DNA of 64,000 nucleotides from an uncultured delta proteobacterium (GTDB lineage: Bacteria > Myxococcota_A > Polyangia > Polyangiales > Polyangiaceae): assembly GCA_963782055.1 (NCBI GenBank), contig CAWAIF010000003.1, positions 5,472,001 to 5,536,000 on the forward strand. The letters are read 5' to 3'. The position numbers and the translations under genes are program-made. Below the pieces are notes generated by a model that was not told the origin of the DNA, made no database searches, and saw only the letters and a list, made by a program, of their open reading frames with translations. Below are positions 470 to 16,009 of this stretch, piece by piece (position 1 is the first letter of the stretch; every line of letters begins with the position of its first letter).

Positions 470-632
470 GAAGAGGCTCCTTGAAAGGACGGGCGCACGC
501 TGGTCGGTCGCTCCACCGAACGCGGGGGGGAGCGGTCCGCCAGCCGGGTTGATCTTGGAGGATCGGCGTGCGGTTGCAAGAGAATTGAGGTCGTTGACGC
601 GCTGAGCCAGCCCTGTTTCCGGGACGGGCAGG

Positions 633-705
633 CGCCCCCGAGACGATTCGAACGTCCGACCAACGGTTTAGGAAACCGCTGCTCTATCCTCTGAGCTACG
701 GGGGC
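633..705 (-). tRNA. tRNA-Arg(CCT), canonical; CCA not encoded
   Basis: GCCCCCG/CGGGGGC acceptor, GCTC/GAGC D-stem with GGA, anticodon loop TT-CCT-AA, T-loop TTCGAAT, G73. Confidence 0.97.
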
Positions 706-6289: not shown

Positions 6290-6991
6290 CTACGGCAGGT
6301 AGCAGACGGTGGCGACGAGCTGCGTGGCGTCCAGGCTCCCGCCGGCGCCGCCCCAGCCGACGACGAAATCCACGGTGTCCCCCACGTCCACCGGCTCCGT
6401 GAGGCCGAAGGCCGCGTCGCCGCCGGAGGCGTCGCCCAGGTTGATCTCACCGTCGAAGAGCGAGCCGGCGCCGTGGAGGACGTGCACGTCCACGGTCGTC
6501 GGCGGCTTGATGGAGAGGCCGACGAAGCGCCCGCCGAGCGCGATGGTCCGCTTGACGGGTGAGGTCCACCGTACGACGGCGGACTCCCCTTCGAGCCCCG
6601 GCATCAGGACGACCGCGCCCGCCGGCACGTCGGCCGTCTGGAACCAGGTCACGGTCTGCGAGGTCGGGTTGAAGCCCACCGCCGGCTGCGCCCCGCCCGT
6701 CAGGGAGGTCACCCACAGGTCGGCCGGACCGAAGGCCTGCTCGTTCGGGAGCGGGCTGAAGATCCCGGGCTCGAACTCGTAGCCGTAGCTCCACGGGCCC
6801 GTCGGGTTGTCGGTGAGGGAGAAGTCGACGGCGACGTCGTCGCAGTGCGGCGTCGGGCCGGCCTCGGGCACGCCGGCGTCGAAGAGGAAGGAGGCGTCGG
6901 GCACGGCGGGCTGCGGCCGCGGAGGCAGGTCGATGCGGGTGCACGCCGCGACCGCGGGCGACACCAGGACGAGGAAGACGAGCCGGCGCAC
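6290..6991 (-). CDS. Hypothetical lipoprotein
   Basis: Lipobox 'AVAAC', DAG linker, GC3-biased codons; GTG start inferred. Confidence 0.7.
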   Translation of the reverse strand: MRRLVFLVLVSPAVAACTRIDLPPRPQPAVPDASFLFDAGVPEAGPTPHCDDVAVDFSLTDNPTGPWSYGYEFEPGIFSPLPNEQAFGPADLWVTSLTGGAQPAVGFNPTSQTVTWFQTADVPAGAVVLMPGLEGESAVVRWTSPVKRTIALGGRFVGLSIKPPTTVDVHVLHGAGSLFDGEINLGDASGGDAAFGLTEPVDVGDTVDFVVGWGGAGGSLDATQLVATVCYLP

Positions 6992-7016
6992 GATGGGCTC
7001 ATCATAGCGCTCTTTG

Positions 7017-7100
7017 CGGAAGGAAGAGGACTCGCACCCCACGCGGAGACCGCGCGCGCTGTTTTCGAGACAGGCCCGACGCTTGGTCGGTTTTCCTTCC
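7017..7100 (-). tRNA. Non-canonical 8/4-fold tRNA-Ser(CGA)
   Basis: GGAAGGAA/TTCCTTCC 8-bp acceptor; CCGAC/GTCGG D-stem with 5-nt loop; anticodon loop CT-CGA-AA (one C.C mismatch atop the stem); long variable arm CGCGG-TCT-CCGCG; 4-bp T-stem GGGG/CCTC with loop TGCGAGT; G73. Confidence 0.8.
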
Positions 7101-7102
7101 AG

Positions 7103-7128
7103 TCTCGCGCCGGATGCCCGGCGCGAGA
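7103..7128. other. Perfect 11-bp hairpin between the HNH stop and tRNA-Ser
   Basis: TCTCGCGCCGG-ATGC-CCGGCGCGAGA; no U-tract. Confidence 0.6.
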
Positions 7129-7139
7129 TCCCGCCTTGT

Positions 7140-7643
7140 TCACGCGCAGAACACCTGCCACGGGGCGGGGACGGTGGCGGGGTCGACCTGCAGCGCCGTC
7201 GTCGCCGGCAGCCACGAGGGCTTCACCGGCTTGGAGAGCAGGCGCATGTGCGCCTCCTCCGGCGTGCGGCCGCCCTTCCTGTCGTTGCAGGCGCGGCACG
7301 CGGTCACGATGTTCGTCCAGTCCGTCGGGCCTCCGCGGGCGCGGGGCACGACGTGGTCGTAGGTGAGCTCGCGCATCGCCCGGCGGGCGCCGCAGTACTG
7401 GCAGCGGAAGGCGTCGCGGGTGAAGACGTTCAGCCGCGAGAAGCGGACCGTCCGCCGCACCGGCACGTGGCCGCGCGTCAGCCGCACCACCGCGGGCGCC
7501 CGCACCGCGAGCGCCTGCGAGCGGATGATCTCGTCGTACTCGGCGACGACCTCGACCTTGCCGAGGAAGCTGAGCACGATCGCGCGCTGCCAGGGGATGA
7601 CCCTGTGCGGCGCCATCGCCGGCGTGAGCATGAGTGTCCGCAT
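7140..7643 (-). CDS. HNH endonuclease (McrA-like stand-alone family)
   Basis: 'WQRAI', 'FSRLNVFTRDAFRCQYCG', 'LTYDHVVPRARGG', 'NIVTACRACNDRKG'. Confidence 0.95.
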   Translation of the reverse strand: MRTLMLTPAMAPHRVIPWQRAIVLSFLGKVEVVAEYDEIIRSQALAVRAPAVVRLTRGHVPVRRTVRFSRLNVFTRDAFRCQYCGARRAMRELTYDHVVPRARGGPTDWTNIVTACRACNDRKGGRTPEEAHMRLLSKPVKPSWLPATTALQVDPATVPAPWQVFCA

Positions 7644-7734
7644 GACCGTTACCTTCGTCTCTTCCTCTTCACGAGGCTGCTGACGCGCGGCGCGGCTCGA
7701 GCCGGACGATGCCACCCGTCCGGGGTGGCGTCGG

Positions 7735-7806
7735 CGCCTCCGCCAAGAGTCGAACTTGGCCACCGAGCTTCGGAGGCTCGAGCCTGGATTCCGCCAGGAC
7801 GGAGGC
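7735..7806 (-). tRNA. Atypical tRNA-Arg(CCG)
   Basis: GCCTCCG/CGGAGGC acceptor; 1-nt linker; 5-bp D-stem CCTGG/CCAGG with loop CGGAAT; 6-bp anticodon stem, loop CT-CCG-AA; 3-nt variable loop; CCAAG-TTCGACT-CTTGG; G73. Confidence 0.8.
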
Positions 7807-7808
7807 CT

Positions 7809-7873
7809 GCGTCCACGGGTCCACGCGCCCTTCGGGTCGTGGGCCGGCCTTCGGCCGGACCTCGTGTGGACGC
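7809..7873 (-). ncRNA. Putative multibranch structured RNA or leader directly 5' of the atypical tRNA-Arg
   Basis: Outer stem GCGTCCAC/GTGGACGC enclosing hairpins CCGGCC-GAA-GGCCGG and CCACG..CCC-GAA-GGG..CGTGG. Confidence 0.45.
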
Positions 7874-7877
7874 CATC

Positions 7878-7896
7878 GGCGACGCCGTCCTGACGC
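7878..7896 (-). promoter_or_regulatory. Candidate operator/promoter motif GCGTCAGGACGGCGTCGCC
   Basis: 17/19 identical to 15900..15918, which also precedes an irregular tRNA. Confidence 0.6.
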
Positions 7897-7947
7897 CGGT
7901 GTTGCCTGCGAGAGACGCGAGGCGTGGGCTGCCGGTAGAGTGATCCC

Positions 7948-9117
7948 ATGCGGTTGGTGCGAAGGGGCCTCGTCGCGACCGGCGTTCTGGTCGCCGCTGG
8001 CGCGGCGGCGTGCTCGGTGCTCACGCCGCTGGACGACCTCACGCAGGGCTACGACGCTGGCGCCGACTCGCCCGCGGCGCCGCGCTGCGAGGGCGGCCTC
8101 GCCGCGTGCAACGGCGCGTGCGTCGACCTGTCCTCTGACGGCCGCAACTGCGGGCGCTGCGGCCACGACTGCGTCGGTGGAGGGTGCTCGGCGTCGGCGT
8201 GCCTGCCCCTGACAATCGCCACCGGCCAGCACTCGCCCTTCGGCATCGCGGTGGACGCGACGCGCGTGTACTGGGCGAACAACGACTACAAGGCCTCCTT
8301 CGCGAGCTGTCCCATCACGGGGTGCGCGGACGGCGGAGTCACCACGCTCCTCGACAACCAGGATCTCCCGGCCGACGTCTTCGTATCTGGCGGCAAGCTC
8401 TACATGACCGACTACGGTGTCAGCGGCGACGCGGGCGGACCGGGGCTGGTGCTCTCCTGCGATCCCACCAACTGCGCGGCCACGCTGGCCACGATCACCT
8501 CCACGACGCCCGACAACCCCGTGGCCGTCGTGGCGGACAAGAGCTCGGTGTTCTGGACCAACGCCAAGGACGGGACCATCGGCACGTGCAGCGCGATCGG
8601 GTGCGTCTCGCCCGGCACCTTCGCGAAGGACAAGGGCGGTGGGCCGTGGTACGGCCTCGCGATCGCGGGCAACGGCGTGTACTGGACGAGCGACGTGCCC
8701 GACGCCGGCGCGGTGAACCGCTGCGACGTCGGCGGGTGCGCCGCGCCGACGCTCGTCTCGAGCAGCCCCGGCCGCCCGTTCGACCTCGCCGTCTTCGGGG
8801 ACTCGGTCTACTGGACCACCGGCGCCGGCGGCCAGGTCCTTCGCTGTCCGCTCGCCGGCTGCAGCACGCCCCAGATCTTCGCCGACAACCAGGCGGCGCC
8901 GGCGGGCATCGCCGCCGACGCCTCCGGCGTCTACTGGTTGAACCAGGCTTCCGGCACCGTGCTGCGCTGCGACCTGCAGGGCTGCGGCGCGAACGGGCCG
9001 GCGGTGCTCGCGGGCGGTCAGGGCGCGCCATGGGAGATCGTGCTCGACGCCACCAGCCTCTACTGGGGAGACTCCGCGAGCGCGGACGGGCGCGTCATGC
9101 GCCTCGCGAAGCCGTGA
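7948..9117 (+). CDS. Secreted lipoprotein with Cys-rich linker and YW-repeat beta-propeller
   Basis: Lipobox 'AAAC', 'NCGRCGHDC', repeated 'VYW/VFW/LYW' blades. Confidence 0.8.
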   Translation: MRLVRRGLVATGVLVAAGAAACSVLTPLDDLTQGYDAGADSPAAPRCEGGLAACNGACVDLSSDGRNCGRCGHDCVGGGCSASACLPLTIATGQHSPFGIAVDATRVYWANNDYKASFASCPITGCADGGVTTLLDNQDLPADVFVSGGKLYMTDYGVSGDAGGPGLVLSCDPTNCAATLATITSTTPDNPVAVVADKSSVFWTNAKDGTIGTCSAIGCVSPGTFAKDKGGGPWYGLAIAGNGVYWTSDVPDAGAVNRCDVGGCAAPTLVSSSPGRPFDLAVFGDSVYWTTGAGGQVLRCPLAGCSTPQIFADNQAAPAGIAADASGVYWLNQASGTVLRCDLQGCGANGPAVLAGGQGAPWEIVLDATSLYWGDSASADGRVMRLAKP

Positions 9118-15937: not shown

Positions 15938-16009
15938 GAGCCGGTTCTCTGACGAGGAGCGCGGTCTGCAACACCGTGCGCGAGGGTCTGATTCCCTCCC
16001 GGCTCTCCA
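15938..16009 (+). tRNA. Atypical tRNA-Cys(GCA) with encoded CCA
   Basis: GAGCCGG/CCGGCTC acceptor, U73, CCA; anticodon arm GCGGT-CTGCAAC-ACCGT; T-arm GAGGG-TCTGATT-CCCTC; short D-arm lacking GG. Confidence 0.82.

Follow-up and report, generated by a model that had tools for sequence, protein, structure and literature searches.

The stretch of DNA analysed here (the window, 64,000 nucleotides of a 7.58-Mb genome from an uncultured member of the Polyangiaceae) carries a compact three-part unit, with all parts encoded on the minus strand: a tRNA-Arg(CCG) gene, a gene for an HNH endonuclease with a short leader ORF in front of it, and, as the last member, a tRNA-Ser(CGA) gene of uncommon architecture (Table 1). 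The HNH protein is 51-66% identical to HNH proteins from tRNA arrays of relatives, and the tRNA-Arg(CCG) shares 81-84% identity with the array tRNA-Arg(CCG) genes found there. The hairpin predicted between the HNH and tRNA-Ser genes is a possible processing or mRNA-end structure, and no match to it was found in the other related loci compared. Of 39 distinct regions upstream of the HNH gene, 8 (that of the window among them) contain a short ORF rich in lysine and arginine codons, as do, judged by eye, three of four further arrays. Such ORFs, in the window and at L036, L100, L102, L108, L109, L069, L017 and L273-L275, use AGG, AGA and CGA codons and stop a few bases short of the HNH start codon, several with a Shine-Dalgarno-like site of their own; they may couple HNH translation to the supply of tRNA-Arg or tRNA-Lys, or be a mere purine-rich ribosome-binding region. 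The REP-like repeat at the other end of the unit occurs in about 70 copies throughout the genome (37 clusters, tandem runs of up to 13). A candidate structured non-coding RNA in this region (7808-7875, z = -2.5) was rejected as a part of the unit because it overlaps the repeat and has no match in the related loci compared. The window contains two further tRNA genes, an ordinary tRNA-Arg(CCT) (631-705, minus strand, Rfam 64.7 bits) and an odd second tRNA-Cys(GCA) (15938-16009, plus strand) with a short D arm and a TCTGATT-type T loop, which resembles array-type tRNA-Cys and is possibly another array remnant; a canonical tRNA-Cys is encoded elsewhere.

Table 1. Coordinates of the three-part unit and of the structural elements of its serine tRNA gene within the window.
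Feature	Position	Strand	Remarks
REP-like palindromic repeat	7818-7863		about 46 bp; directly upstream of tRNA-Arg
tRNA-Arg(CCG), array-type	7733..7806	-	ARAGORN call; made redundant by a housekeeping copy on C2
Lys/Arg-rich upstream ORF	7649..7672	-	7 codons, GTG start; ends 5 nt before the HNH start codon
HNH endonuclease gene	7140..7643	-	167 aa, open frame; Pfam HNH_5, E = 2e-16; tRNA-array-linked type
GC-rich hairpin between HNH stop codon and tRNA-Ser 5' end	7101..7131	-	predicted fold
(8/4) tRNA-Ser(CGA)	7017..7100	-	84 nt to discriminator G; CCA not encoded
Acceptor stem	5' strand 7100-7093, 3' strand 7018..7025	-	8 bp, all Watson-Crick; pair 8 is A-U
D arm	loop 7081..7085	-	5-bp stem, 5-nt loop without GG
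D-loop sites equivalent to 18 and 19	7083 (A), 7082 (G)	-	G19 equivalent kept; inferred A18.G55 contact
Anticodon arm	7058..7074	-	4-bp stem topped by C27.C43 (7074, 7058)
T stem	7040-7037 with 7029-7026	-	4 bp, one G.U
T loop TGCGAGT	7030..7036	-	G replaces U55 (7035); C56 (7034) kept

The tRNA-Ser gene runs from G1 (7100) to its discriminator G (7017) and has a 2-nt linker between the acceptor and D stems, the anticodon CGA at 7067-7065 in a regular 7-nt loop with U33 and A37, and a variable region of 17 nt that includes a 5-bp stem. A sequence-only reading of the locus had listed the long acceptor stem, the short T stem, the unusual loops and the C.C mismatch without stating the strand, and all of these features are indeed there, on the minus strand. 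A plus-strand reading was discarded: although both strands show the inverted repeat, anticodon, T loop and discriminator parse on the minus strand only. The serine identity elements that had been claimed were likewise found (long variable arm, G1-C, G2-C, A3-U, G73). The nearest homologue is about 80% identical, and no stem is broken in the window gene. ARAGORN calls it a tRNA-Ser(CGA) under relaxed settings; with default ARAGORN and with Rfam there was no call of a tRNA-Ser at 7017-7100. A 151-nt record of the public DNA run X1 spans 6962-7111 with one letter different, X1 being the only one of three DNA runs compared that showed part of the window; it may represent the source sample.

A strict descriptor of the 8/4 fold, applied to both strands of the genome, has a single match, which is this gene. 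It is also the sole match in the window of a covariance model (R2; 79 bits, E = 1e-16) that was built from 117 matches on viral contigs with the window gene excluded, the training set having been gathered with a model that contained the window gene. A model R1, in which the window gene was aligned with ten serine tRNAs adjoining HNH homologues, scores it at 83.8 bits, a circular value that we do not count as evidence. The sequence-only reading had made its case depend in part on the eighth acceptor pair in homologues, and this pair proved to be kept by covariation: across the 60 distinct rows of an alignment of 65 R1 matches from 32 loci, fitted to the model, it is G-C in 50, A-U in nine, unpaired in none and a gap in one. 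Of all cells in this alignment 98.5% are paired, a value equalled in none of 500 shuffles.

Since the alignment was fitted to the model, model-free checks were added. Relaxed ARAGORN searches of 34 HNH-centred loci returned 28 serine calls, 17 of them credible array tRNAs, all 17 with the 8/4 fold; the remaining 11 are weak and fail to parse (non-tRNA). The four housekeeping tRNA-Ser of the host are all 7/5. When three sets of homologues were pooled, position 8 was paired in 158 of 159 distinct sequences, a 7/5 register being impossible in 137 of the 159 and either register open to the other 22 (54 of 58 distinct order-level rows, 34 of 35 further genomic rows and 82 of 95 viral rows were kept; those dropped had other anticodons or a bad parse, and two long rows were skipped). 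For the window gene a 7/5 fold was rejected, as it would need a T.T pair at the junction. ViennaRNA gives the unmodified transcript a minimum free energy of -38.6 kcal/mol (z = -2.1) vs. -32.2 kcal/mol for the cloverleaf; the minimum free energy structure retains the acceptor, D and variable stems and refolds the anticodon and T arms, whose stems have pair probabilities of 0.16-0.18. The genome-unique descriptor match, the R2 score and the covariation of pair 8 nevertheless support the reading as an 8/4 tRNA-Ser, and on this comparative evidence the fold is to be regarded as real.

The (8/4) tRNA-Ser class was defined by Mukai et al. (2017) in phages, proteobacteria and rumen Clostridia. The window gene has its structural characters (12-bp branch, serine anticodon, long variable arm with G73, long D stem with a small loop) and, judged by these, belongs to the class. 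A comparison with the published set, which the sequence-only reading had proposed, bears this out: five CGA rows in the supplement of that study, designated (8/4, delta20) and located in tRNA clusters, share with the window gene the 8-bp acceptor stem, the 4-bp T stem (GGGG/CCTC), the 2-nt linker, the 5-bp D stem with a 5-nt loop, the unpaired 27.43, the long variable arm and G73. They differ in having a GG D loop and a TTC T loop in place of A18.G55, and they derive from metagenome contigs, some assigned to phages, whereas the window gene is chromosomal. A narrow whole-word search of the supplement, covering five myxobacterial names or stems, was negative, and the accessible sections of a review (PMC7609411) add nothing new on the CGA 8/4 subclass. 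The tRNA-Ser(CGA) of the host (C2:470993-471081) has the same anticodon, G1-C, G2-C and A3-U pairs, long variable arm and G73, but differs by a 7/5 branch, U8, a 4-bp D stem with a GG loop, a TTC T loop and a paired 27-43. An 8-bp acceptor stem, a long D stem with a small loop and a long variable arm are also found in bacterial tRNA-Sec (8/5) and selC* tRNA-Cys; tRNA-Sec, however, has a 13-bp branch, in contrast to the 12-bp branch and sense anticodon CGA of the window gene. A tRNA-Sec identity was ruled out accordingly (8/4 and CGA vs. 8/5 and UCA): the window gene has no match to the Rfam tRNA-Sec model, and one homologue reaches 42 bits, under the cut-off of 47. A missense or nonsense suppressor allo-tRNA was also ruled out, since serine identity and serine anticodon agree and there is no G3.U70.

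Searching 151 genomes of the order with R1 gave matches in 47 at E <= 0.001 and in 34 at E < 1e-7 (own genome included, hand count). A pattern scan of genome contigs yielded at least 119 stretches, with model matches in 14 of the 80 listed; among those listed, the matches come mostly from Myxococcota (Labilithrix, Polyangium, Byssovorax, Sandaracinus, Polyangiaceae) and one from Ruegeria. These named relatives and a GC content of 72% agree with a host among the myxobacteria of the Polyangiales. The 117 viral matches fall in 56 of 70 pattern-selected loci (hand count). To call such tRNAs rare, as had been done, is therefore overstated, given strong matches in 34 of the 151 order genomes and in 56 of the 70 viral loci; in the chromosomal arrays of this order, the 8/4 type is the standard form of tRNA-Ser. 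Several homologues or neighbours are odd in their own right. Three tRNAs with the anticodon GTA lying beside 8/4 tRNA-Ser fit the model (L045:1397-1481, L046:1398-1482, L053:1781-1865), and those of L045 and L046, with eight acceptor pairs, a 4-bp T stem and A73, are possible 8/4 tRNA-Tyr. The anticodon CTA was parsed in a Polyangium array (L069:1613-1699) and on a viral contig (L236:1311-1398), possibly representing natural amber readers or else a parsing shift. The discriminator is U and not G in 14 of 62 pooled 8/4 tRNA-Ser(CGA) rows, and the T-loop region of two 8/4 tRNA-Ser(CGA) genes (L053:1327-1481, L043:1212-1365) contains an insertion of some 65-70 nt, perhaps of mobile origin or a sign that the gene is interrupted.

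Of the 32 loci with the best 8/4 matches, 17 (own locus included) have an HNH match no more than about 1.5 kb away, and arrays with an HNH gene of this family in relatives contain about 9-37 tRNA calls in seven of ten regions and 15-40 in all four regions from the same family. The order Arg-CCG, HNH, 8/4 Ser recurs in these four same-family arrays (L272-L275) as well as in L258, L260 and L261; it is not universal, as Arg-CCG is downstream of HNH in L102, L108 and L109. In phylogenetic analysis the window HNH and the solitary HNH genes of all six genus relatives are sister lineages (support 100/98), and this genus group is nested, with weaker support (88/98), among array HNHs that share the leader ORF. 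Supernumerary HNH-linked tRNA genes, redundant with housekeeping ones and subject to frequent deletions, have been described as L-arrays (Santamaria-Gomez et al., 2021; PMC8421152). The window locus resembles these in its redundancy and its linked HNH endonuclease and differs from them in that the HNH gene is located inside the tRNA run; the available passages of that paper describe no 8/4 folds or elbow changes. A long co-oriented run of tRNA genes is missing at the window locus, which with just two such genes left is a remnant rather than an array. The tree placement of the HNH and the gene order in relatives' arrays indicate an inherited, eroded array, so that the locus is best read, from its sequence relationships, as a collapsed long tRNA array, a context that the sequence-only reading had not brought up. 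In the ancestral array, about 15-40 spare tRNAs would have surrounded an HNH gene, often in company with Ro60 or Y-RNA genes; of these, tRNA-Arg(CCG), the HNH gene with its leader ORF and tRNA-Ser(CGA) would be left, still in the ancestral order. Ro60/TROVE genes (2 of 15 ORFs scanned) and YrlA-like Y-RNA are carried by arrays of relatives, L258 having a TROVE-like ORF besides the scanned ones; no match to a TROVE/Ro60 gene was found in the 97%-complete host genome, and an RtcB gene is present elsewhere in it. Between the HNH gene and the 8/4 tRNA-Ser of L016 there is a stretch (~2200-2240, equivalent to ~3740-3780 of L258) with no Rfam match, which we take to resemble helix 69-71 of 23S rRNA. 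At the orthologous locus, all six genus relatives lack the serine tRNA, which argues that it is dispensable; beside their HNH genes two kept a tRNA-Met alone and four have no tRNA in the available flanks (one of the four being a cut contig). A further array, of 27 genes and with a distant HNH, exists separately in one relative.

The position of one tRNA on each side of the HNH gene and the K/R-rich leader ORF before it raise the idea of a non-translational role, in which the tRNAs would mark the structural boundaries of the HNH transcript, where processing would set free or stabilise the mRNA, or would be recombination landmarks of a small HNH cassette. It is in keeping with a cassette that three flanking proteins tested had no match beside 12 related HNH loci, indicating that the unit moved or that its surroundings were rearranged. 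However, the HNH gene persists in genus relatives beside a single tRNA or none, no second example of the exact three-part unit was found among the loci examined, and the anticodon loop and the identity elements show the conservation seen in working tRNAs, so that we consider such a role highly improbable.

The mismatch C27.C43, singled out in the sequence-only reading as an oddity of this gene, is a family trait and not a sign of decay: 27.43 is paired in just 11 of 54, 6 of 34 and 23 of 82 homologues of the three sets and is likewise unpaired in the CGA rows of Mukai et al. (2017). tRNAs with a 4-bp anticodon stem and C34 have been suggested to read A-ending codons by extended superwobble (PMC13092985), and the combination of C27.C43 and C34 in the window gene would fit this. 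It gives no specific support for superwobble, because members with the anticodons GGA and GCT are unpaired at 27.43 too (paired in 2 of 17 CGA, 3 of 14 GGA and 7 of 24 GCT sequences).

The two remaining oddities, the D loop without GG and the altered T loop, exist as had been described, but rather than being separate they read as a single compensatory tertiary change. In the 32 sequences whose D loop has 5 nt, the third base of the loop is A in all nine that have G55 and G in all 23 that have U55, while the fourth is always G and position 56 always C; in the pooled sets, 79 of 80 sequences obey the same rule. With position numbers assigned by analogy, this suggests that the contact between G18 and pseudouridine 55 (PMC5485724) has been replaced, G18.U55 becoming A18.G55 with G19-C56 kept. 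The window gene is alone in lacking GG among 58 distinct order-level sequences; a D loop without GG recurs in 1 of 34 further genomic and 4 of 82 viral homologues, all with G55. The same association is seen beyond serine: of 511 non-Ser tRNAs in 70 array loci, 29 have G55, and of these 21 lack GG and 28 have AG, whereas GG is absent in only 6 of 480 with U55. G55 was found in none of 54 host tRNA calls with a regular T loop. P values and counts on G55 overstate independence, because kin share traits. We found no description of an A18.G55 elbow in the openly searchable literature; a 2003 study of T-loop suppressor libraries may bear on it.

It is tempting to speculate whether the 8/4 branch and A18.G55 together evade enzymes that read the canonical elbow or the acceptor/T junction, such as tRNA-cleaving toxins of host or phage or the enzymes modifying U55 and U54, and thus sustain serine decoding when the housekeeping copy is cut. 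The recurrence of A18.G55 across isoacceptors of the arrays and its absence from the host calls would agree with this, as would the Ro60/TROVE and Y-RNA genes of the arrays and the partition of serine tRNAs into 8/4 in arrays and 7/5 in the host. Yet most array tRNAs keep G18.U55 (474 of 511), the shared ancestry of the G55 sequences weakens the counts, and the analysis turned up neither a nuclease nor a target. Toxins usually attack the anticodon loop, which is ordinary here, and we regard a protective function of this kind as quite unlikely.

The host encodes canonical tRNA-Ser for CGA, TGA, GGA and GCT, leaving no decoding need for the window gene. A3-U70, a seryl identity determinant, is present in all four of these. 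There are two genes for nucleotidyltransferases of the CCA/poly(A) type, and 40 of 50 housekeeping-like host tRNA calls do not end in CCA. Elsewhere in the genome we noted a short-arm tRNA-Leu(TAA) and a tRNA with an enlarged anticodon loop (C3:2204743 and C3:6242435) and, at C2:407911, a partial duplicate of tRNA-Arg adjoining the housekeeping tRNA-Arg(CCG).

The gene probably encodes, in our view, a chargeable spare serine tRNA of the (8/4) class that survives in an eroded array and is processed, serylated and used in decoding UCG. Transcription, if any, would probably occur by read-through from upstream of tRNA-Arg across the HNH gene, after which the transcript would be trimmed and provided with CCA by host enzymes. 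The 8 + 4 = 12-bp acceptor/T branch makes a normal overall length and L shape probable, and the elbow would be closed by A18.G55 plus G19-C56. Serylation would proceed via the long variable arm, the G1-C and G2-C pairs and G73, and the product might act as a spare decoder of UCG, most plausibly during stress. That the tRNA is chargeable, as already proposed in the sequence-only reading, is a reasonable inference by analogy: SerRS recognises its tRNA chiefly by the variable arm and the shape, together with G1-C72, G2-C71 and G73 (PMC9976931), EF-Tu reads the 12-bp length of the acceptor branch and different 8/4 allo-tRNAs led to the incorporation of Ser or Ala in E. coli (PMC5389517), and 23 of 26 array tRNAs of Anabaena were charged when induced (PMC8421152). 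The in vivo tests of Mukai et al. (2017) used 8/4 allo-tRNAs with non-serine anticodons and not the CGA subclass.

Alternatively, a true 8/4 tRNA-Ser gene might have been deprived of its promoter or regulation by the collapse of the array and persist as a silent relic, unexpressed and so far undecayed. Its redundancy with the housekeeping CGA isoacceptor and its loss in the six genus relatives would be expected of such a relic, L-arrays are described as mostly silent (PMC8421152), a genome-wide repeat abuts the tRNA-Arg gene, and no sigma-70-like promoter was found in 6900-8100, a weak test at 72% GC. On the other hand, at about 80% identity to the nearest homologue the stems are intact and the elbow change is compensated, and the HNH frame, leader ORF and tRNA-Arg are intact too. 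This implies long past selection and is no proof of present selection. We hold a silent relic to be a rather unlikely explanation. Going further than the chargeable spare tRNA that we favour, one may picture a triply rewired working serine tRNA (8/4, A18.G55 and an unpinned 4-bp anticodon stem), selectively kept after the collapse as a back-up independent of nucleases or of modification, possibly reading UCA as well as UCG, within a minimal stress unit whose HNH is gated by an Arg/Lys leader peptide. We consider this doubtful; if true, the gene would offer a compact substrate on which to test a second natural closure of the tRNA elbow.

As the 8/4 fold is already published, the gene itself represents a gain in annotation, and since default ARAGORN and Rfam miss it, serine tRNAs are undercounted in myxobacterial and phage arrays. 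The window copy contributes an A18.G55 elbow carried on an 8/4 scaffold, where the swap from G18.U55 with its near-perfect covariation should be of use to specialists, together with a clear case of array erosion. An array at this late stage, with two genes left, makes it testable whether array tRNAs are selected or not yet lost.
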